Virus record (IMG/VR): IMGVR_UViG_2671180852_000010
Source: a virus
Lineage: Duplodnaviria; Heunggongvirae; Uroviricota; Caudoviricetes
DNA length: 8,897 nt
Reading direction: 5' to 3' (one strand)
The translations under genes were made by a program, and so were the position numbers. Positions within the stretch are counted from its first letter, which is position 1. Each line of letters starts with the position of its first letter. The notes beneath the pieces are model-generated. The model worked only from the letters and a program-made list of their open reading frames with translations. It searched no databases and was not told the origin of the DNA. Positions 1 to 8,897 of the stretch are shown here, one piece after another.

Positions 1-46
1 TAAAAAAAGAACAAATGGTAGTGTCCGCTATTGCCAGTACACCTCA
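1..46 (+). mobile_element. Right terminus of an IS3-family insertion sequence whose body lies upstream of the window; bases 1-3 correspond to the orfB stop codon
   Basis: Bases 1-46 are identical to 5138-5183, which directly follow the transposase OrfB stop (TAA 5138-5140) of the internal IS copy. The segment ends in ...CCTCA, matching the 5'-TG...CA-3' ends typical of IS3-family elements. The exact end is uncertain by a few bp. Confidence 0.45.
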
Positions 47-245
47 TCCATCACCGAAAAAAATTGGCTTTTACACCATTGGCGATAAAAGCATTTACCT
101 GTATGACCTACGCCGCATGGATGAAATCATGGAGGCTCTTGATAATCGTTCGTCGATGGATTGGTGTGTTGCTGTTCATGATATGAATGCAGGGTTTGAT
201 GAAAAGATTTTGTTCCCCTCATCAGTTGAAAGCACTGCGGGTTAA
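47..245 (+). pseudogene. 3' fragment of an unidentified gene, apparently interrupted by the IS insertion (about 66 codons ending ...FPSSVESTAG)
   Basis: The frame is open from inside the IS terminus through to TAA at 243-245. The ATG at 15 reported in the ORF track lies inside the presumed IS terminal sequence, so the 76-aa ORF is probably chimeric. No family recognised. Confidence 0.3.
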
Positions 246-255
246 GGAGTAACAC

Positions 256-423
256 ATGACCACTATTACCAAAGAACGTATTGAATTGTTCATTAAAAAC
301 CCGCTTGAAAACGGGCTTACCCGTGGTGAACAAATGGAACTGGCACGGATTGCGCTGGCATCGCTGGAAGCAGAGCCGGTTGTGTTCTGGTTTGAAAAAT
401 ATCAAGAAGGGGCTACGGCATGA
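256..423 (+). CDS. Hypothetical 55-aa protein ([12 protein letters not shown]...), short paralog of the N-terminal half of the next ORF
   Basis: ATG at 256 preceded by AAGGAG (244-249). The stop TGA 421-423 overlaps the next start ATG 420-422 (ATGA). Shares the MTT(I/F)T(K/R)E start, the IAL(A/V)SL(E/A)AEP motif and FEKYQEG versus HEYKPVG with ORF 420-764. It falls below the ORF-track length cutoff. Confidence 0.5.
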
Positions 424-764
424 CGACTTTTACCAGAGAGCAGTTAATAGCTCACGCAGAGGAGACTATTGAAGCACAGAGACTGTGCATACCGGGCACA
501 ATCGACCATGACATCATCCGCACATATAAGATGGATATTGCTGTTCTGGAAATCGCACTGGTATCGCTGGCAGCAGAGCCAGCCGGTAAATTGCATGAAT
601 ACAAACCAGTGGGATATCAGCGTCTGGTCGATGAGTTAACCATGCTGGTAAAGCAGTTAACCTGGCAACTGAGGAAAGCGAAGCCAGACTGCAAATTACC
701 GGATAAGGCGATGAGTTATCTGGAGCGGAACGGACTGATAAGCGTGGAGGATATTTTACGATGA
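420..764 (+). CDS. Hypothetical 114-aa protein ([15 protein letters not shown]...), family not recognised
   Basis: Translationally coupled to both neighbours by ATGA overlaps at 420-423 and 761-764. Paralogous to the preceding 55-aa ORF. An identical copy lies at 5557-5901. Confidence 0.6.
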
Positions 765-844
765 CCTGGCCTGAAGCATTAACAACGGTAGGAATTGCGA
801 TGGCGGTGGCGCTGGTGGTGTATTCGATTTGCCGCTGGGGATAA
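761..844 (+). CDS. 27-aa hydrophobic mini-protein ([27 protein letters not shown]), predicted single transmembrane helix
   Basis: ATG 761 overlaps the upstream stop (ATGA); TAA at 842-844. The hydrophobic core is flanked by W/R residues. It is short enough that the call is tentative. Confidence 0.3.
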
Positions 845-1055
845 AAACGGTTTGCGGGAAAAGGAGAGTTAAGTAGAATTGCAGCGGGTGCTTGAGGCTA
901 TCTGTCTCAGGCATGAACACCAAAAGGCAGATAGAGAAAAGCCCCAGTTAACATTACGCGTCCGGCAAGACGCTTAACATTAATCTGAGGCTCAATCTAT
1001 GAACGGCAAATCTAGGTTAGCCTCTTACGTGCCGAAAGGCAAGGAGAAGCAGGCT

Positions 1056-1211
1056 ATGAAGCAGCAAAAGGCGATGTTAATCGCCCTGATCGTCATCTGT
1101 TTAACCGTCATAGTGACGGCACTGGTAACGAGGAAAGACCTCTGCGAGGTACGAATTCGAACCGGCCAGACGGAGGTCGCTGTCTTCACAGCTTACGAAC
1201 CTGAGGAGTAA
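1056..1211 (+). CDS. hokD: Hok/Gef-family type I toxin, 51 aa (MKQQKAMLIALIVICLTVIVTALVTRKDLCEVRIRTGQTEVAVFTAYEPEE)
   Basis: The translation matches the Hok/Gef family signature (single transmembrane helix, TRKDLCEV motif, C-terminal periplasmic tail) and matches my recollection of E. coli K-12 HokD. AAGGAG at 1041-1046 lies 9 nt before the ATG. The downstream order rem, ydfU, Q fits the Qin prophage context. The ORF track extends this frame upstream to ATG 999 (70 aa). Confidence 0.85.
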   Translation: MKQQKAMLIALIVICLTVIVTALVTRKDLCEVRIRTGQTEVAVFTAYEPEE

Positions 1212-1281
1212 GAGACCAGGCGGGGGAGAAATCCCTCGCCACCTCTGATGGGTCAGGCATCCTCAATGCACCCACACTTAA

Positions 1282-1306
1282 CCCGCTTCGGCGGGTTTTT
1301 GTTTTT
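1282..1306 (+). terminator. Rho-independent terminator-like hairpin downstream of hok
   Basis: Stem CCCGC (1282-1286), loop TTCG, stem GCGGG (1291-1295), followed by TTTTTGTTTTT. Confidence 0.6.
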
Positions 1307-1319
1307 ATTTTCAACGCGT

Positions 1320-1349
1320 TTGAAGTTTTAGATGGTGCCGGAATAGAAT
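1320..1349 (+). promoter_or_regulatory. Candidate sigma70 promoter upstream of the rem-ydfU-rusA-Q gene string
   Basis: TTGAAG (1320-1325), 18-nt spacer, TAGAAT (1344-1349). Both hexamers are retained at 6457-6486 in module 2 even though the surrounding sequence has diverged. Confidence 0.3.
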
Positions 1350-1428
1350 CAAAAATACTTAAGTAGCGCGCAGGGAGAAGAGGGATGGACCCCGAACAGG
1401 GGAGTGCTATTTATCTGGAAGGATTCTG

Positions 1429-1787
1429 TTGATGAAAATCGAAGAATTACGTGAAATTTTTAGTGAAGATGGCCTCTATACTGTGCGCGTTGAGAATGGC
1501 GCTATTGTCAGCCACTGCCTTCCAGACTACACAATTCTGATAATTCAGCCGTCTTTGCCAGCAGGCACGGGCGGCGCTCTCACGCATTTAAATCTGATTG
1601 GTACCAGCATCCCCCATGCACTGAAGAACAGGCCGAATGGCTCATTCAGTGTTACCGCAGGCGCGGATGCGAGGTTAAAAAAGCCCTTAGCCTCGACTAC
1701 CGTCACTGGATAATCTCCGTCAGGCTCCCTTACTCCGAACGGCCAACGCGTCCGTCCCGCACATTCCAGCAACGGATCTGGAGGTAA
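1429..1787 (+). pseudogene. Deletion-disrupted region: rem 5' portion fused out of frame to the start-less 3' portion of the homolog of the module-2 92-aa ORF
   Basis: Module 1 is about 238 bp shorter than module 2 between the rem start and the ydfU start. ORF 1429-1713 has a Rem-like N-terminus (MMKIEELREIF...VENGAIVSH) and then reads the downstream gene in the wrong frame. The correct frame of that gene (ending TAA 1785-1787) has no ATG/GTG/TTG start after the stop at 1491-1493. Confidence 0.5.
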
Positions 1788-1788
1788 T

Positions 1789-2847
1789 GTGCGGGTATTA
1801 CTTCGACCTGTTCTGGTACCGGAACTCGGTCTGGTTATCGTTAAGCCAGGCCGTGAATCAATGTCAGCATTCCATAACGGCAGAATACTGGTGGAGCCGG
1901 AACCAAAAAGCATGCGTAATCTGCCGTCCGGGGTCGTTCCTGCCGCTCGCCAGCCGCTGGTGGAAGACAAAACATTGCTGCCGTTTTTCAGTAACGCACG
2001 GGTGATTCGTGCTGCTGGTGGTGCTGGTGCATTGTCTGACTGGCTGTTGCGCCATATTAAATCCTGCCAGTGGCCACACGGCGATTATCATCACAGCGAA
2101 ACCGTCATTCACCGTTATGGTACCGGCGCAATGGTGTTGTGCTGGCACTGCGACAACCAGCTGCGTGACCAGACATCCGAATCACTCGAGCAACTTGCTC
2201 ATCAAAACCTGTCAGCATGGATGATTGACGTCATCGGTCACGCAATAAGCGGTACGCAGGAGCGTGAATTATCTCTGGCTGAATTATCCTGGTGGGCGGT
2301 CCGCAATCAGGTGGCGGACGCGCTACCGGAAGCGGTATTACGTCGTTCGCTGGGGTTGCGTGCGGAAAAAATTCGCTCTGTGTACAGTGAAAGCGACATC
2401 ATACCGGGAGAGCAGACAGCCACCAGCATACTGAAGCAGCGCACAAAAAATATTGCGTTACTGCCTCACGTCCACCAGCAACAGAACCCACCACAGGAAA
2501 AGACGGTGGTCAGCATTGCCGTTGATCCGGAGTCACCGGCTCAGTATCTCCAGCGCCAGAAATCACAACGGGAAGAGATGCCTGTATACACGCGCTGGGT
2601 AAAAACGCAGAAATGCATGACGTGTGGCAATCAGGCAGATGATCCGCATCACATCATTGGTCATGGACTGGGAGGGATGGGAACAAAGGCTGATGATTTG
2701 TTTGTTATTCCGTTATGCCGTAAATGCCGTAACGAACTACATGCCGGAGTAAAAGATTTTGAAGAGAAACACGGCAGTCAGCTGTTGTTGCTGATTCGTT
2801 TTTTAATGCACGCGAGAAATTCGGGTGTTCTGAAGTGGAAAGCATAA
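1789..2847 (+). CDS. ydfU: YdfU-like DUF968 prophage protein, 352 aa, with a C-terminal HNH-like Cys/His motif
   Basis: GTG start at 1789 with GGAGG 5 nt upstream. C-terminal CMTCGNQADDPHH...LCRKCRNELH. Paralog at 7163-8209. Its position between rem and Q matches Qin ydfU. Confidence 0.8.
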   Translation: MRVLLRPVLVPELGLVIVKPGRESMSAFHNGRILVEPEPKSMRNLPSGVVPAARQPLVEDKTLLPFFSNARVIRAAGGAGALSDWLLRHIKSCQWPHGDYHHSETVIHRYGTGAMVLCWHCDNQLRDQTSESLEQLAHQNLSAWMIDVIGHAISGTQERELSLAELSWWAVRNQVADALPEAVLRRSLGLRAEKIRSVYSESDIIPGEQTATSILKQRTKNIALLPHVHQQQNPPQEKTVVSIAVDPESPAQYLQRQKSQREEMPVYTRWVKTQKCMTCGNQADDPHHIIGHGLGGMGTKADDLFVIPLCRKCRNELHAGVKDFEEKHGSQLLLLIRFLMHARNSGVLKWKA

Positions 2848-3228
2848 ATGACCGAGCGCATAGAATTTGTTTTACCTTACCCGCCGACGGTGAACACTTA
2901 CTGGCGTCGTCGTGGCAGCACATATTTTGTATCAAAAGCCGGGGAGCGTTATCGCCGGGCAGTGGCGCTTATTGTTCGCCAGCAGCGGCTGAAATTAAGC
3001 CTGTCCGGAAGGTTGGCAATAAAAATTATTGCAGAACCACCGGATAAGCGCCGCCGTGACCTGGACAATATTCTGAAAGCGCCGCTGGATGCGCTGACGC
3101 ATGCGGGGTTGCTAATGGACGATGAGCAGTTTGATGAAATCAATATCGTTCGTGCTCAGCCAGTATCTGGTGGACGTCTGGGGGTGAAGATTTATCCCAT
3201 AATGCTTGAAGGGCAGGTCAAAAAATGA
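2848..3228 (+). CDS. rusA: RusA-family Holliday junction resolvase (crossover junction endodeoxyribonuclease), 126 aa
   Basis: PDKRRRDLDNILKAPLDALTHAGLLMDDEQ matches the RusA catalytic-core pattern (K-12 RusA has [30 protein letters not shown]). The stop overlaps the Q start (ATGA at 3225-3228). Confidence 0.85.
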   Translation: MTERIEFVLPYPPTVNTYWRRRGSTYFVSKAGERYRRAVALIVRQQRLKLSLSGRLAIKIIAEPPDKRRRDLDNILKAPLDALTHAGLLMDDEQFDEINIVRAQPVSGGRLGVKIYPIMLEGQVKK

Positions 3229-4286
3229 AACTGGAAGATTTACCGAAATACTACTCCCCAAAATCCCCCGGCCTGACTGATGCATCGGCCTCAACGTCGA
3301 AAGATGCGCTGAGTATCACTGATGTGATGGCCGCGCAGGGCATGACACAGAATCGGGCTGAGATGGGGGTTTCTGCGTTCCTTGGGAAAATGGGCATTAG
3401 TATGAATGACAGAGAGCGGGCAACAGAATTGCTGACAGAATATGCACTCAGTCGGTGTGATCGCGTGGCGGCGTTAAGAAAACTCCCGGCAGAAATAAAA
3501 CCGGCAGTGATGCGTATTATGGCTTCGTATGCGTTTGAAGATTATGCCCGTAGCGCGGCGAGCAAAAAACAGTGCCCCTGCTGTCACGGAAAAAAATTTA
3601 TTGAAAGCGAGGTTTTTACAAACAAGATCCAGTATCCGGATGGTAAGCCGCCGGTATGGGCAAAGTGTACGAAAGGTGTGTATCCGTCTTACTGGGAAGA
3701 ATGGAAAAAAGTCAGGGAGGTGGTAAAAGTTGCCTGTCCGGAGTGTGGCGGAAAGGGTGAGGTTTCCACCGCCTGTAAGGATTGCCGTGGGCGTGGTGTC
3801 GCCATTCATCGTGAAGAGTCGGTAAAACGTGGTATGCCTGTTATCAGAGACTGCCAGCGTTGTGGTGGTCGTGGCTATGAAAGACTACCATCAACGGAGG
3901 CATTTAATGCTATATGCGAGGTGACAAACCAGATAACACGCGCGTCATGGGAAAAAACAGTTAAGAAATTTTATGATGCGCTGGTGACCCGGTTTGATAT
4001 TGAAGAAGCATGGGCTGAGCGGCAGTTAAAAAAGGTAACTAGGTATGAAAATCAACTTTCGATCAGTGAAGGCGCTTCCCGATTATCTCTTCCTGAAGGC
4101 ACTTTAGGACAATGGGTTACCGCCGCAAGAAAAGGGCTCAATACACCAGGCTCCCGCACAGTGGCTGAGCTGGAATCTGAAGTTATGCAACTGCGTAAGG
4201 CTTTAAATGAAGCACGACTTGAGCGAGATATATTAAAAAAAGCAACAGCGTATTTTGCACAGGAGTCGCTGAAAAATACGCGTTAA
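3225..4286 (+). CDS. Chimeric ORF: Q-type late antiterminator (about aa 1-274) joined in frame to the C-terminal part of an IS3-family OrfA (from about aa 275)
   Basis: The N-terminal 270 aa or so are about 95% identical to the partial Q' at 8593-8897 and carry four CxxC pairs. From about nt 4047 the translation (ENQLSISEGASRLSLPEGTLGQWV...ERDILKKATAYFAQESLKNTR) is a typical IS3-family OrfA helix-turn-helix and leucine-zipper C-terminus that lacks its own N-terminus. Confidence 0.7.
   Translation: MKLEDLPKYYSPKSPGLTDASASTSKDALSITDVMAAQGMTQNRAEMGVSAFLGKMGISMNDRERATELLTEYALSRCDRVAALRKLPAEIKPAVMRIMASYAFEDYARSAASKKQCPCCHGKKFIESEVFTNKIQYPDGKPPVWAKCTKGVYPSYWEEWKKVREVVKVACPECGGKGEVSTACKDCRGRGVAIHREESVKRGMPVIRDCQRCGGRGYERLPSTEAFNAICEVTNQITRASWEKTVKKFYDALVTRFDIEEAWAERQLKKVTRYENQLSISEGASRLSLPEGTLGQWVTAARKGLNTPGSRTVAELESEVMQLRKALNEARLERDILKKATAYFAQESLKNTR
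4235..4241 (+). other. Candidate programmed -1 ribosomal frameshift heptamer A AAA AAA (followed by G) for OrfAB fusion synthesis
   Basis: Heptamer in the OrfA zero frame (TTA AAA AAA GCA). The -1 frame is open from here into OrfB (KKSNSVFCTGVAEKYALIEQWRQQFPIEAMCQVFGVSRSGYY...). A 9-bp stem-loop begins 6 nt downstream (4248-4256 pairing with 4273-4281). Confidence 0.5.
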
Positions 4287-4321
4287 TCGAACAATGGCGA
4301 CAACAATTTCCCATTGAAGCG

Positions 4322-5140
4322 ATGTGTCAGGTATTTGGTGTATCCAGGAGCGGTTATTACAACTGGGTACAGCATGAACCCTCAGACAGAAAACAAAGTG
4401 ATGAGCGGCTAAAACTGGAGATTAAGGTGGCACATATCCGCACTCGCGAAACATATGGAACCCGGCGGCTCCAGACGGAGCTGGCAGAGAATGGCATCAT
4501 CGTTGGTCGTGACCGACTGGCACGTCTTCGTAAGGAGCTAAGGCTACGCTGTAAGCAGAAACGCAAGTTCAGAGCGACTACGAACTCGAACCACAATCTG
4601 CCAGTTGCGCCAAATCTGCTGAACCAGACGTTCGCTCCTACAGCACCAAATCAGGTCTGGGTGGCGGACCTGACGTATGTTGCCACACAGGAGGGATGGT
4701 TGTACCTCGCTGGCATCAAAGATGTTTATACGTGCGAAATTGTCGGCTACGCCATGGGAGAGCGCATGACAAAAGAGCTGACAGGTAAAGCCCTGTTTAT
4801 GGCGCTCAGGAGCCAGCGCCCACCTGCCGGGCTAATCCACCACTCTGATCGAGGTTCACAGTACTGCGCATACGATTACCGGGTCATACAGGAGCAGTCT
4901 GGTCTGAAAACATCAATGTCGCGTAAAGGTAACTGTTACGACAACGCTCCGATGGAAAGCTTCTGGGGAACGCTGAAAAATGAGAGCCTGAGCCACTATC
5001 GTTTTAATAACCGGGATGAAGCCATCTCAGTAATACGGGAATACATTGAGATTTTCTACAATCGTCAGCGTCGTCACTCTCGTCTGGGGAATATCTCCCC
5101 GGCAGCCTTCAGGGAAAAATATCATCAGATGGCTGCTTAA
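4322..5140 (+). CDS. IS3-family transposase OrfB (DDE / rve integrase core); the coordinates are the standalone ORF, which in vivo is probably made as an OrfAB frameshift product
   Basis: Conserved IS3-family OrfB features: VWVADLTYV, HSDRGSQY, a KGNCYDNAPMESFWGTLK segment containing the catalytic E, and a C-terminal YNRQRRHSRLGNISP. It is in the -1 frame relative to OrfA. Confidence 0.85.
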   Translation: MCQVFGVSRSGYYNWVQHEPSDRKQSDERLKLEIKVAHIRTRETYGTRRLQTELAENGIIVGRDRLARLRKELRLRCKQKRKFRATTNSNHNLPVAPNLLNQTFAPTAPNQVWVADLTYVATQEGWLYLAGIKDVYTCEIVGYAMGERMTKELTGKALFMALRSQRPPAGLIHHSDRGSQYCAYDYRVIQEQSGLKTSMSRKGNCYDNAPMESFWGTLKNESLSHYRFNNRDEAISVIREYIEIFYNRQRRHSRLGNISPAAFREKYHQMAA

Positions 5141-5183
5141 AAAAAGAACAAATGGTAGTGTCCGCTATTGCCAGTACACCTCA

Positions 5184-5382
5184 TCCATCACCGAAAAAAA
5201 TTGGCTTTTACACCATTGGCGATAAAAGCATTTACCTGTATGACCTACGCCGCATGGATGAAATCATGGAGGCTCTTGATAATCGTTCGTCGATGGATTG
5301 GTGTGTTGCTGTTCATGATATGAATGCAGGGTTTGATGAAAAGATTTTGTTCCCCTCATCAGTTGAAAGCACTGCGGGTTAA
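5184..5382 (+). pseudogene. Second copy of the 3' fragment of the IS-interrupted gene (identical to 47-245)
   Basis: Identical sequence directly downstream of the IS right end. Confidence 0.3.
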
Positions 5383-5392
5383 GGAGTAACAC

Positions 5393-5560
5393 ATGACCAC
5401 TATTACCAAAGAACGTATTGAATTGTTCATTAAAAACCCGCTTGAAAACGGGCTTACCCGTGGTGAACAAATGGAACTGGCACGGATTGCGCTGGCATCG
5501 CTGGAAGCAGAGCCGGTTGTGTTCTGGTTTGAAAAATATCAAGAAGGGGCTACGGCATGA
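5393..5560 (+). CDS. Hypothetical 55-aa protein, identical copy of 256-423
   Basis: Identical sequence, with AAGGAG upstream and an ATGA overlap with the next gene. Confidence 0.5.
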
Positions 5561-5901
5561 CGACTTTTACCAGAGAGCAGTTAATAGCTCACGCAGAGGA
5601 GACTATTGAAGCACAGAGACTGTGCATACCGGGCACAATCGACCATGACATCATCCGCACATATAAGATGGATATTGCTGTTCTGGAAATCGCACTGGTA
5701 TCGCTGGCAGCAGAGCCAGCCGGTAAATTGCATGAATACAAACCAGTGGGATATCAGCGTCTGGTCGATGAGTTAACCATGCTGGTAAAGCAGTTAACCT
5801 GGCAACTGAGGAAAGCGAAGCCAGACTGCAAATTACCGGATAAGGCGATGAGTTATCTGGAGCGGAACGGACTGATAAGCGTGGAGGATATTTTACGATG
5901 A
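5557..5901 (+). CDS. Hypothetical 114-aa protein, identical copy of 420-764
   Basis: Identical translation in the ORF track. Confidence 0.6.
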
Positions 5902-5981
5902 CCTGGCCTGAAGCATTAACAACGGTAGGAATTGCGATGGCGGTGGCGCTGGTGGTGTATTCGATTTGCCGCTGGGGATAA
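5898..5981 (+). CDS. 27-aa hydrophobic mini-protein, identical copy of 761-844
   Basis: Identical sequence, with an ATGA overlap with the upstream gene. Confidence 0.3.
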
Positions 5982-6192
5982 AAACGGTTTGCGGGAAAAG
6001 GAGAGTTAAGTAGAATTGCAGCGGGTGCTTGAGGCTATCTGTCTCAGGCATGAACACCAAAAGGCAGATAGAGAAAAGCCCCAGTTAACATTACGCGTCC
6101 GGCAAGACGCTTAACATTAATCTGAGGCTCAATCTATGAACGGCAAATCTAGGTTAGCCTCTTACGTGCCGAAAGGCAAGGAGAAGCAGGCT

Positions 6193-6348
6193 ATGAAGCA
6201 GCAAAAGGCGATGTTAATCGCCCTGATCGTCATCTGTTTAACCGTCATAGTGACGGCACTGGTAACGAGGAAAGACCTCTGCGAGGTACGAATTCGAACC
6301 GGCCAGACGGAGGTCGCTGTCTTCACAGCTTACGAACCTGAGGAGTAA
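6193..6348 (+). CDS. hokD: Hok/Gef-family type I toxin, identical second copy
   Basis: Identical to 1056-1211. Confidence 0.85.
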   Translation: MKQQKAMLIALIVICLTVIVTALVTRKDLCEVRIRTGQTEVAVFTAYEPEE

Positions 6349-6418
6349 GAGACCCGGCGAGGGAGAAATCCCTCGCCACCTCTGATGTGGCAGGCATTCT
6401 CAACGCACCCGCACTTAA

Positions 6419-6443
6419 CCCGCTTCGGCGGGTTTTTGTTTTT
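6419..6443 (+). terminator. Rho-independent terminator-like hairpin downstream of hok copy 2
   Basis: Same CCCGC-TTCG-GCGGG stem-loop followed by a T-run, in sequence that has otherwise started to diverge between modules. Confidence 0.6.
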
Positions 6444-6456
6444 ATTTTCAACGCAT

Positions 6457-6486
6457 TTGAAGTTCTGGACGGTGCCGGAATAGAAT
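6457..6486 (+). promoter_or_regulatory. Candidate sigma70 promoter, module-2 copy
   Basis: TTGAAG, 18-nt spacer, TAGAAT, conserved with 1320-1349. Confidence 0.3.
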
Positions 6487-6564
6487 CAAAAATACTTAAG
6501 TAGCGCGCAGGGATAAGAGGGATGGTCCCTTAAAGGGGAGAGCTAATTATCCGGAAGGATTCTG

Positions 6565-6816
6565 ATGATGAACATCGAAGAACTGCGTAAAATTTTTTGT
6601 GAAGATGGCCTCTATGCTGTGTGCGTTGAAAATGGAAATATTGTTAGTCATTACCGCATTGTGTGTTTGCAAAAAAATGGGGCTGCGTTAATTAATTTTG
6701 TGGATGCCCGAGTGACGGACGGATTTATCTTGCGCGACGGTGAGTTTGTCACTTCATTACAGGTATTGAAAGAGATCGGAATAAAAGCTGGCTTTTCTGC
6801 TTTTTCAGAAGAATAA
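6565..6816 (+). CDS. rem: Rem-like small prophage protein, 83 aa, intact
   Basis: Its length and its position between hokD and ydfU fit E. coli Qin rem. GGAAGG lies upstream of tandem ATG ATG. Assigned by context and recollection, not by search. Confidence 0.55.
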   Translation: MMNIEELRKIFCEDGLYAVCVENGNIVSHYRIVCLQKNGAALINFVDARVTDGFILRDGEFVTSLQVLKEIGIKAGFSAFSEE

Positions 6817-6882
6817 ACTCATCTACAATCTTGCGCGGGGCTGAACTCCCGCTGAGTAACACCGTGCCACCGGAGAAAACCG

Positions 6883-7161
6883 ATGGCACGCAACGCAAAA
6901 TATTACAAACATGATAATTCGACCGTTCTTGCCCACACGCACGAGCGGTATTCTCACGCATTTAAGTCAGACTGGTACCAGCATCCCCCATGCACTGAAG
7001 AACAGGCCGAATGGCTCATTCAGTGTTACCGCAGGCGCGGATGCGAGGTTAAAAAAGCCCTTAGCCTCGACTACCGTCACTGGATAATCTCCGTCAGGCT
7101 TCCTTACTCTGAACGCCCACCGCGTCCGTCCCGCACATTCCAGCAACGCATCTGGAGGTAA
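6883..7161 (+). CDS. Hypothetical 92-aa protein (MARNAKYYKHDNST...), family not recognised
   Basis: GGAG lies upstream of the ATG. The stop TAA 7159-7161 directly abuts the ydfU' GTG start. Most differences from the module-1 homologous segment are synonymous in this frame (aag/aaa, tca/tct, gac/gat, ctt/ctc, tct/tcc, cgc/cgg), which supports it as a real coding frame. Confidence 0.6.
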   Translation: MARNAKYYKHDNSTVLAHTHERYSHAFKSDWYQHPPCTEEQAEWLIQCYRRRGCEVKKALSLDYRHWIISVRLPYSERPPRPSRTFQQRIWR

Positions 7162-7162
7162 C

Positions 7163-8209
7163 GTGCGGGTATTACTTCGACCTGTTCTGGTACCGGAACT
7201 CGGGCTGGTGATCGTTAAGCCGGGCCGTGAATCCATGCCGGTATTCCACAATACCCGGGTACTGGTGGAGCCGGAACCGAAAAGCATGCGTAATCTGCCG
7301 TCCGGGGTCGTTCCTGCCGTTCGCCAGCCGCTGGCGGAGGATAAATCATTACTGCCATTTTTCAGCGACGAACGAGTGATTCGTGCTGCTGGTGGCGCTG
7401 GCGCATTGTCTGACTGGTTACTGCGCCATGTTAAATCCTGCCAGTGGCCACACGGCGATTATCACCACAGTGAAACCGTCATTCACCGTTATGGTACCGG
7501 CGCAATGGTGTTGTGCTGGCACTGCGACAACCAGCTGCGCGACCAGACCTCCGAATCACTCGGGCAACTTGCTCACCAAAACCTGTCTGCATGGATGATT
7601 GACGTCATACGCCATGCAATGAATGGCTCGCAGGAACGGGAATTATCGCTGGCTGAATTATCCTGGTGGGCGGTCCGCAATCAGGTGGCGGACGCGCTAC
7701 CGGAAGCGGTATTATGTCGTTCGCTGGGGTTGCGTGCGGAAAAAATCCGCTCAATGTACCGTGAAAGCGACATCGTACCGGGAGAGCAGACCGCCACCAG
7801 CATACTGAAGCAGCGCACAAAAAATCTTGCGCCGCTGCCTCACGCCCACCAGCAAAACCCGCCACAGGAAGAGACGGTGGTCAGCATTGCCGTTGATCCT
7901 GAGTCTCCGGAATCTTTCATGAAACGACCTAAACGTCGCCGCTGGGTTAACGAGAAATACACACGCTGGGTGAAGACACAGCCGTGTGCGTGTTGTGGTA
8001 AGCCAGCCGACGATCCCCATCACCTGATTGGTCATGGTCAGGGCGGAATGGGGACAAAATCTCACGATATTTTCACGCTACCGCTGTGTCGGGAGCATCA
8101 CAACGAGCTTCATGCGGATCCTCTGGCGTTCGAAGAAAAGCATGGTTCTCAGGTTGATTTAATTTTTCGTTTTCTTGATCACGCCTTTGCAACTGGCGTG
8201 CTTGGGTAA
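7163..8209 (+). CDS. ydfU: YdfU-like DUF968 protein, 348 aa, diverged paralog of 1789-2847
   Basis: GTG start. The N-terminal two-thirds are about 90% identical to module 1. The C-terminal motif is CACCGKPADDPHH...LCREHHNELH, and the extreme C-terminus is divergent. Confidence 0.8.
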   Translation: MRVLLRPVLVPELGLVIVKPGRESMPVFHNTRVLVEPEPKSMRNLPSGVVPAVRQPLAEDKSLLPFFSDERVIRAAGGAGALSDWLLRHVKSCQWPHGDYHHSETVIHRYGTGAMVLCWHCDNQLRDQTSESLGQLAHQNLSAWMIDVIRHAMNGSQERELSLAELSWWAVRNQVADALPEAVLCRSLGLRAEKIRSMYRESDIVPGEQTATSILKQRTKNLAPLPHAHQQNPPQEETVVSIAVDPESPESFMKRPKRRRWVNEKYTRWVKTQPCACCGKPADDPHHLIGHGQGGMGTKSHDIFTLPLCREHHNELHADPLAFEEKHGSQVDLIFRFLDHAFATGVLG

Positions 8210-8221
8210 AAGAGGTGACTG

Positions 8222-8596
8222 ATGCTCATAGATTTGGTTTTACCTTACCCGCCGACGGTGAACACTTACTGGCGACGCCGTGGCAGCACATATTTTATCT
8301 CGGAGGAGGGAAAGCGTTATCGCCGGGCTGTGGCGCTTATTGTTCGCCAGCAGCGGCTGAAATTAAGCCTGTCCGGAAGGCTGGCGATAAAGGTGATTGC
8401 AGAGCCACCGGATAAGCGTCGTCGCGACCTGGACAATATCCTGAAAGCACCGCTGGATGCGCTGACGCATGCGGGAGTGTTAATGGACGATGAGCAGTTT
8501 GATGAAATCAATATCGTTCGTGGTCAGCCAGTATCTGGTGGACGTATGGGGGTGAAGATTTACCCCATAATGCATGAAGAGCAGGTCAAAAAATGA
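8222..8596 (+). CDS. rusA: RusA-family Holliday junction resolvase, 124 aa, paralog of 2848-3228
   Basis: Same conserved core. AAGAGG lies upstream of the ATG. The stop overlaps the Q' start (ATGA). Confidence 0.85.
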   Translation: MLIDLVLPYPPTVNTYWRRRGSTYFISEEGKRYRRAVALIVRQQRLKLSLSGRLAIKVIAEPPDKRRRDLDNILKAPLDALTHAGVLMDDEQFDEINIVRGQPVSGGRMGVKIYPIMHEEQVKK

Positions 8597-8897
8597 AACT
8601 GGAAGATTTACCGAAATACTACTCCCCAAAATCCCCTTGCCTGACCGATGCATCGGCCTCAACGTCAAAAGATGCGCTGAGTATCACTGATGTGATGGCC
8701 GCGCAGGGCATGACACAGAATCGGGCTGAGATGGGGTTTTCTGCGTTCCTGGGGAAAATGGGCATCAGTATGAATGACAGGGCGCGGGCAACAGAATTAC
8801 TGGCAGATTATGCACTCAGTCGGTGCGATCGTGTGGCGGCGTTGAGAAAACTTCCGGCAGAAATAAAACCGGTAGTGATGCGCATTATGGCTTCGTA
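8593..8897 (+). CDS. Q-type antiterminator, 5' portion only (the ORF runs off the window end)
   Basis: ATG 8593; the translation MKLEDLPKYYSPKSPCLTDASASTSKDALSITDVMAAQG... is about 95% identical to Q at 3225. Absent from the ORF track because there is no stop within the window. Confidence 0.75.
   Translation, partial: MKLEDLPKYYSPKSPCLTDASASTSKDALSITDVMAAQGMTQNRAEMGFSAFLGKMGISMNDRARATELLADYALSRCDRVAALRKLPAEIKPVVMRIMAS

Follow-up and report, generated by a model that had tools for sequence, protein, structure and literature searches.

The window, a stretch of 8,897 nucleotides, contains the end of the early (nin) region of a lambdoid prophage twice, as tandem modules. Each module carries small ORFs, a hok/gef toxin gene, rem, an ORF of about 90 aa, ydfU, rusA, and the antiterminator gene Q, in that order. 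In module 1, ydfU copy 1 (1789-2847, plus strand) is followed by rusA (2848-3228, plus strand), which encodes a Holliday-junction resolvase and begins right after the ydfU stop, and then by Q (3225-4286, plus strand). In module 2, ydfU copy 2 (7163-8209, plus strand) precedes the second rusA (8222-8596, plus strand). An IS3-family insertion sequence (4046-5183, plus strand) lies between the modules and is 5'-truncated, with its left end absent and its first bases gone. At the junction 4045/4046 this element breaks the stop codon of module 1 Q in the third base. Q itself is complete and reads on into the transposase orfA frame as a Q-OrfA' fusion ORF of 353 aa.

BLASTN aligned positions 1-1499 with 5138-6635 at 98% identity, the first 1,390 nt being identical, 1538-2539 with 6912-7910 at 91%, and 2849-3529 with 8216-8897 at 92%. 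Within the block pairing 2540-2848 with 7911-8215, the alignable part is a 65-nt core only, at 78% identity. The 1,390-nt identical stretch includes the last 46 nt of the IS3-family element, and past it the identity between the modules (1-5137 and 5138-8897) falls to 83-92%. From about position 6528 on, module 2 is a 99% match to L006, the prophage in which copy 2 is normally found. Together, the drop in identity and this match point to a crossover in the hok-rem region. The DNA comes from Shigella sonnei, and positions 1-4045 are 100% identical to S. sonnei CP104423.1. None of the other S. sonnei genomes examined has the two modules in tandem, so the window reflects either a rearrangement specific to this strain or a join made in assembly.

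The hok/gef-family type I toxin genes (999-1211 and 6136-6348; Pfam HOK_GEF, E 3e-23) are identical and lie upstream of rem and ydfU in their respective modules. Module 1 has 38 nt (1500-1537) where module 2 has 276 nt (6636-6911), a difference that alters the C-terminus of the module 1 rem-like ORF (1429-1713, 94 aa). The ORF of about 90 aa before ydfU in module 1 lacks its 5' end relative to its counterpart at 6883-7161.

YdfU is a 352-aa protein in copy 1 and a 348-aa protein in copy 2. The initial annotation assigned a GTG start to both genes, and the ORFs are present at these positions with their starts supported by several features. A Shine-Dalgarno GGAGG (1780-1784, plus strand) lies 4 nt before the GTG of copy 1, and the upstream ORF ends in a TAA at 1785-1787, 1 nt before that GTG. 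The GTG of copy 2 is likewise preceded by a GGAGG, at a distance of 4 nt, and by the stop of the upstream ORF, at 1 nt. Residues 1-24, which precede the first ATG, are conserved in relatives of just 27-48% identity, and in a close 348-aa allele (L001) RefSeq places the start at the equivalent site, immediately behind the preceding ORF. The TAA stop of copy 1 abuts the ATG of rusA, which makes co-expression of this ydfU and rusA probable. The GTG of copy 1 is overlapped by an out-of-frame ATG (A-T-G-T-G, 1787-1789) that opens a probably spurious 72-aa ORF (1787-2005). Copy 2 has no overlapping ATG (AACGTG) and lacks the ORF.

The two YdfU proteins are 82% identical overall. As the initial annotation had estimated, the N-terminal two-thirds are about 90% identical, with codons 1-250 reaching 90% at both the amino acid and the nucleotide level. 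From codon 251 to the end, identity is 57% (aa) and 55% (nt), and the mismatch densities of the two parts differ with a Fisher P of 1e-32. The dN/dS between the alleles over codons 2-250 is 0.15, which indicates that codons 1-250 of both were shaped by long purifying selection. Copy 1 is the Shigella sonnei allele: at least 1000 contigs that bear the name S. sonnei or Shigella encode exactly its protein, and 54 so named encode exactly that of copy 2. Clustering at 90% identity groups each exact sequence with about 5,000 members, which places YdfU among the most widespread prophage proteins of E. coli and Shigella.

The divergent C-terminal cassette corresponds to 2540-2848 in module 1 and 7911-8215 in module 2. 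It begins after a conserved V-D-P-E-S-P at codon 250 and extends to the rusA start. That annotation quoted the divergent strings correctly but described two separate patches; the divergence is continuous over codons 251 to the end, and the exchanged unit is thus one cassette, namely the whole HNH domain. Its suggestion of modular exchange is borne out by database proteins in which the N-part and the C-cassette assort independently. P0275 joins an N-part 98% like copy 2 to a C-part 98% like copy 1, and P0389 joins an N-part of 64% identity to a C-part 99% like copy 2. A saturated dS and a dN of 0.40 mark the cassette forms as old, distinct alleles. Escherichia and Shigella prophages hold discrete cassette alleles of about 60% mutual identity that are freely joined to different N-parts.

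A second breakpoint occurs in the widespread 330-aa class of E. coli YdfU (P0347-P0406), whose members nearly match the window copies through residue ~125 and diverge sharply thereafter. This breakpoint, at codon ~126, falls at the end of an N-terminal Cys/His module; like the one at codon ~250, it lies at a domain boundary. The family had already been classified, and the ydfU cassette swap is phage mosaicism of the ordinary kind. In four further proteins (P0146, P0174, P0176, P0226), the N-terminal 150-225 residues of YdfU are fused to tail-tip J or tail-fibre domains. A reading of P0146, P0174, and P0176 as signs of domain mobility was rejected; all four are most simply deletion chimeras in decayed prophages.

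The window contains nine Chi octamers (GCTGGTGG), compared with 0.24 expected from shuffles. They lie at 811, 1956, 2014, 5948, and 7388 on the plus strand and at 2420, 2472, 7794, and 7846 on the minus strand. Copy 1 of ydfU contains four of them and copy 2 contains three, numbers above those of synonymous-codon shuffles (P 0.0005 and 0.003), with the plus-strand pair left of the minus-strand pair. The cassette breakpoint follows the last Chi of copy 1 (2472-2479) by 60 bp. The SfIV, ST64B, and mEp390 alleles share several of the sites, and the ST64B early region has 10 Chi in 5.9 kb. A clustering special to ydfU was considered and rejected: the early regions of related phages are Chi-rich throughout, which makes a special relation of Chi to ydfU unlikely. 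This richness resembles the Chi enrichment reported for some temperate phages.

The C-terminal domain of YdfU contains the motifs that the initial annotation had compared with HNH/His-Me finger nucleases, a C-x2-C ... DPHH ... C ... NELH arrangement that is present as quoted. In copy 1 these are C276-x2-C279 (2614-2625), D285-P-H287-H288 (2641-2652), and C310-R-K-C313-R314-N-E-L-H318 (2716-2742); in copy 2 the last motif reads C-R-E-H-H-N-E-L-H. The motifs are not due to chance, as the Pfam DUF968 family (PF06147) matches residues 160-345 with E-values of 2.6e-62 (copy 1) and 5e-76 (copy 2). The corresponding scores, 210.3 and 254.9 bits, exceed the cutoff of 27.8, and the matches cover positions 1-169 and 1-171 of the 171-position profile. 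PHROG 96, 'HNH endonuclease', matches the full length (residues 1-349; E 1e-162 and 6e-176). HNHc_6 (PF16784) gives a weak match that overlaps the DUF968 match, at 28.0 bits for copy 1, above the cutoff of 26.6, and 22.4 bits for copy 2, below it. No NCBIfam model matched YdfU.

A full-length AlphaFold2 model, built on 31 homologues, is of only moderate confidence (mean pLDDT 67, pTM 0.43). Residues 60-190 (pLDDT 80-92) and most of 265-345, except the 293-301 loop, are modelled confidently, whereas residues 1-55 and 190-265 are unmodelled. The core consists of a β strand at 285-288 that ends in H287-H288, a second strand at 306-309, and an α helix at 311-319 that bears C313, residue 314, and H318. 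Profile comparison with hhalign aligned the C-terminal domain to P1 Ref (E 1.4e-5), with PCxxC, HHI.G, and PLCRxHH in common, and to K-12 YbcO (E 5.8e-5). In a plain HMM search of the PDB, the same C-domain profile placed 3g27 (YbcO) at the top and in register, at a marginal E of 0.16; the full-length protein and full-length profile gave no relevant PDB matches. The model and the profiles thus agree on a His-Me finger fold, as the initial annotation had expected, and they support a zinc-stapled β-β-α-metal (HNH/His-Me) nuclease fold for the last ~100 residues of YdfU. Among solved structures, P1 Ref and prophage YbcO are closest to it.

The cassette of copy 1 (residues 251-352; 2540-2847, plus strand) has a putative active site of H287, H288, D303, and H318, and that of copy 2 (7911-8209, plus strand) one of H286, H287, D302, H313, and H317. 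The candidate general-base His at the end of strand 1 lies in the pair H287-H288 of copy 1 and H286-H287 of copy 2. Across 31 relatives that are 27-48% identical, H287 is conserved in 27, H288 in 28, D303 in all 31, H314 in 26, and H318 in 27. The predicted zinc site is Cys4 in copy 1 (C276, C279, C310, C313) and Cys3His in copy 2 (C275, C278, C309, H312). Both forms are common among the retrieved proteins, with 173 C-H-H against 127 H-H-H.

Copy 1 differs from its relatives at codon 314 (CGT, Arg; 2728-2730, plus strand), where the near-invariant His after the second Cys pair is replaced. The initial annotation had missed this Arg. Position 314 is His in 119 of the 120 closest homologues, the remaining one having given no motif match, and CRKCRNELH occurs in copy 1 (P0270) alone among 431 retrieved proteins, about 300 of which carry His there. 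The substitution is a single transition, CAT to CGT. Copy 2 has both candidate metal-ligand His residues on the helix, H313 and H317, whereas copy 1 has R314 and keeps H318. Position 314 is equivalent to H185 of PhiNM1 Gp16, a residue of the nuclease centre whose mutation weakens the phenotype (PMC12817073). Copy 1 is also located in a prophage remnant riddled with insertion sequences, and together with Arg314 this suggests that it is probably catalytically weakened. Copy 2, judged by its residues, is intact and has every predicted catalytic position. The two natural alleles allow a comparison of His314 with Arg314 and of a Cys4 with a Cys3His zinc site.

The N-terminal Cys/His module of copy 1 spans about residues 60-150 (1966-2238, plus strand). 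It contains C93 ... H100-H101 ... C118-W-H-C121-D122, the internal cluster that the initial annotation had read as HCQWPHGDYHH...CWHCD; the cluster is present, but its first His is not, as Ser precedes C93 (KSCQW). The putative zinc ligands are C93 (2065-2067), H101 (2089-2091), C118 (2140-2142), and C121 (2149-2151), followed by D122-N123. All of 31 diverse relatives retain C93 and C118. A Cys or His also occupies position 101 in 30 of them and position 121 in all 31, and D122 is kept in 29. This conservation argues for a structural four-ligand metal site, which in the models sits on a hairpin (105-110, 113-118) with a helix (119-125) behind it.

It is hypothesized that the N-terminal module is a degenerate second HNH-like finger. 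Its general-base His is not conserved, a Pfam search of the module gave no match, and its comparison with the HNH finger was not significant by hhalign (Prob 0.5%) or Foldseek (best E 1.1). A broader proposal built on this hypothesis is, as a whole, doubtful. It holds that an ancient internal duplication may have left a catalytically dead zinc module (C93/H101/C118/C121-D122) that directs an active C-terminal HNH domain of the Ref type to intermediates bound by RecA or a recombinase. YdfU may then serve as a nicking partner of RusA, and its catalytic cassette may be exchanged between prophages as a unit with the help of properly oriented Chi sites 60-120 bp upstream of the breakpoint.

The hok-rem-orf-ydfU-rusA-Q order of both modules is also found in S. 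sonnei genomes, and the order HNH-rusA-Q recurs in an Stx2a phage. In mEp390 the order is rusA-HNH-Q, and in ST64B rusA lies two genes before the YdfU homologue. No rusA adjoins the YdfU homologue in SfIV or in one Klebsiella phage, so this adjacency is common without being obligatory. In the DLP12 prophage of K-12 the order is ybcO-rusA-quuD, with the stand-alone HNH protein gene ybcO occupying the ydfU slot and overlapping rusA. In the loci examined, the YdfU homologue is always just before Q.

Annotation of the family varies among records. The RefSeq phage records of ST64B and mEp390 name the homologues "HNH endonuclease". The ST64B homologue (L015 2489-3443, sb47/sb48) is split into two overlapping CDSs, 'HNH endonuclease' and 'DUF968', a split suggestive of a frameshift or of faulty sequencing behind the reference entry. 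In LR597642.1 (H16) and KF030445.1 (H24), the homologue is labelled 'antitermination protein Q', and 607-aa database proteins (P0384, P0385, P0398) join DUF968 and Antiterm domains. The Q labels and the 607-aa joins are probably mis-annotations or frameshift fusions. The true Q (Pfam Antiterm) lies downstream in every locus examined, so the label 'antitermination protein Q' on ydfU homologues is wrong.

YdfU is likely a zinc-stapled HNH nuclease of the nin region, encoded in part by an exchanged cassette, that acts on recombination or replication intermediates. Its fold, motifs, synteny, and mosaicism are shown by the analyses above, and its catalysis, substrate, and partner are inferred. YdfU would be produced early in lytic growth along with RusA. 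H288, at the end of strand 1, would act as the general base, H287, H314, and H318 would hold the catalytic divalent metal, and the Cys4 site of copy 1 or the Cys3His site of copy 2 would hold a structural zinc. The 250-residue N-part, with its own four-ligand Cys/His site, may supply recognition of DNA or of a partner. In line with a proposal for its nuclease group and with findings on the related nucleases P1 Ref and PhiNM1 Gp16, YdfU would probably nick or cut branched or single-stranded intermediates. A packaging-associated HNH role was also considered and was rejected, as ydfU is not near terminase genes.

The conserved nin/rusA/Q block, a region of recombination and late control, sits poorly with the idea that YdfU is a host-takeover or conflict nuclease that damages or blocks host or rival-phage DNA replication soon after induction, its swapped cassettes reflecting an arms race. 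PADLOC likewise matched no defence-system model to either copy or to the neighbouring ORFs. Such a role would draw on PhiNM1 Gp16, which has the same CxxC...C-R-E-H-H...H motif, inhibits host growth, and raises phage yield (PMC12817073), although YdfU lacks the NinB-like domain of Gp16. The score of copy 1 above the HNHc_6 cutoff and the discrete, deeply diverged cassette alleles with their saturated dS also speak for it. On balance, this role is unlikely.

Family members P0200, P0205, and P0223 have lost the HH pair and kept the zinc cysteines, which shows that a non-catalytic role exists within the YdfU family. It is nevertheless improbable that YdfU itself is a non-catalytic zinc-finger protein for DNA binding or regulation, with the HNH motif as a structural relic. 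Besides the members that retain the Cys4 site, the loss of His314 in copy 1 and the resemblance of the N-terminal module to an HNH finger without a general base are in keeping with such a protein, as are several phage records that annotate the gene 'antitermination protein Q' or 'transcriptional regulator'. However, the gene for true Q is a separate one downstream, and H287, H288, H314, and H318 are retained in about 27 of 31 distant relatives. A free-standing homing endonuclease whose own cleavage and repair spread the cassette is very improbable. In its favour, HNH domains are common in homing endonucleases, the cassette borders are sharp, and Chi sites cluster in ydfU. Against it, the HNH domain makes up only the last third of a protein whose three-part build is conserved and which is under purifying selection (dN/dS 0.15), and its syntenic position is the same from Vibrio phages to Escherichia phages. 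Neither an intron or intein nor an empty-site pattern is present, the codon ~126 breakpoint of the 330-aa class fits general domain-boundary mosaicism, and Chi richness covers the whole early region of related phages.

The family, the HNH nature, the neighbours, and the mosaic character of YdfU are already on record. Curtis et al. (2014) noticed a zinc-finger HNH motif in DUF968 (PMC4118853). Jablonska et al. (2017) placed DUF968 and DUF1364 in group 7 of the His-Me finger nucleases, naming Qin YdfU and YbcO/3G27, noted RusA and Q as neighbours, and proposed a role in recombination or repair like that of NinG and RecA-dependent nucleases (PMC5714182). A literature search found no paper reporting an assay of any YdfU-family protein. 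The present additions are incremental and comprise H314R in the S. sonnei allele, the Cys4 and Cys3His zinc sites, the exact cassette borders, Ref as best structural match, and a possible second finger. They concern a K-12 'y-gene' and have little import beyond annotation.

The window copies share with Qin YdfU of E. coli K-12 the three-part architecture, the RusA/Q neighbourhood, and the full DUF968 profile. They differ from it as allelic variants only, with copy 1 bearing the S. sonnei-specific H314R. YbcO (DUF1364, PDB 3G27) of DLP12 and phage 82 is a 96-aa protein that consists of the HNH domain alone, without the 250-residue N-part, and has Asp at the position of YdfU H318.

The nearest characterised relatives of YdfU are Ref and Gp16, which underlie its reading as an early metal-dependent nickase or nuclease on recombination or replication intermediates. 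[quoted passage not shown] Its HNH core (PDB 3PLW) is found in YdfU, and its PLCRWHH has the same form as the copy 2 motif. The 76-residue basic, disordered N-terminus of Ref is not in YdfU, which instead has 250 residues that are in part confidently folded, and the ref gene occupies a different genomic place from ydfU. Gp16 of Staphylococcus phage PhiNM1, also the product of an early phage gene, shares CxxC ... C-R-E-H-H-x3-H with copy 2; experiments show it to be a nuclease in its own right that interacts with RecA and inhibits replication of the host (PMC12817073). An Orf/NinB-like domain, claimed for Gram-positive 'DUF968' proteins (PMC4118853), forms the N-terminal part of Gp16 and occurs likewise in the HNHc_6 fusion PhiETA Orf20, but none was detectable in YdfU. 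As YdfU has neither the Ref N-terminus nor this domain, RecA dependence is not transferable to it from these relatives. The domain map and the relation to Ref yield a concrete hypothesis for biochemistry, in which YdfU is a nickase that depends on RecA or on branched DNA and is produced along with RusA.

Two further phage proteins frame the comparison. NinG (Rap) of lambda is a His-Me finger nuclease of group 24 (PMC5714182) that acts on branched recombination intermediates and is encoded in the equivalent nin slot before Q. It belongs to a different Pfam family, PF05766, which is not among the Pfam matches of YdfU, and lambda is without rusA. PdcB of phage P1 is a full-length YdfU homologue, with 27% identity over 81-91% of the protein. 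Its gene (3049-3843 in the P1-like phage L013; M95666.1) follows phd-doc-pdcA and precedes lpa and pacA, outside any nin region. P1 thus carries both Ref and a YdfU-family protein.
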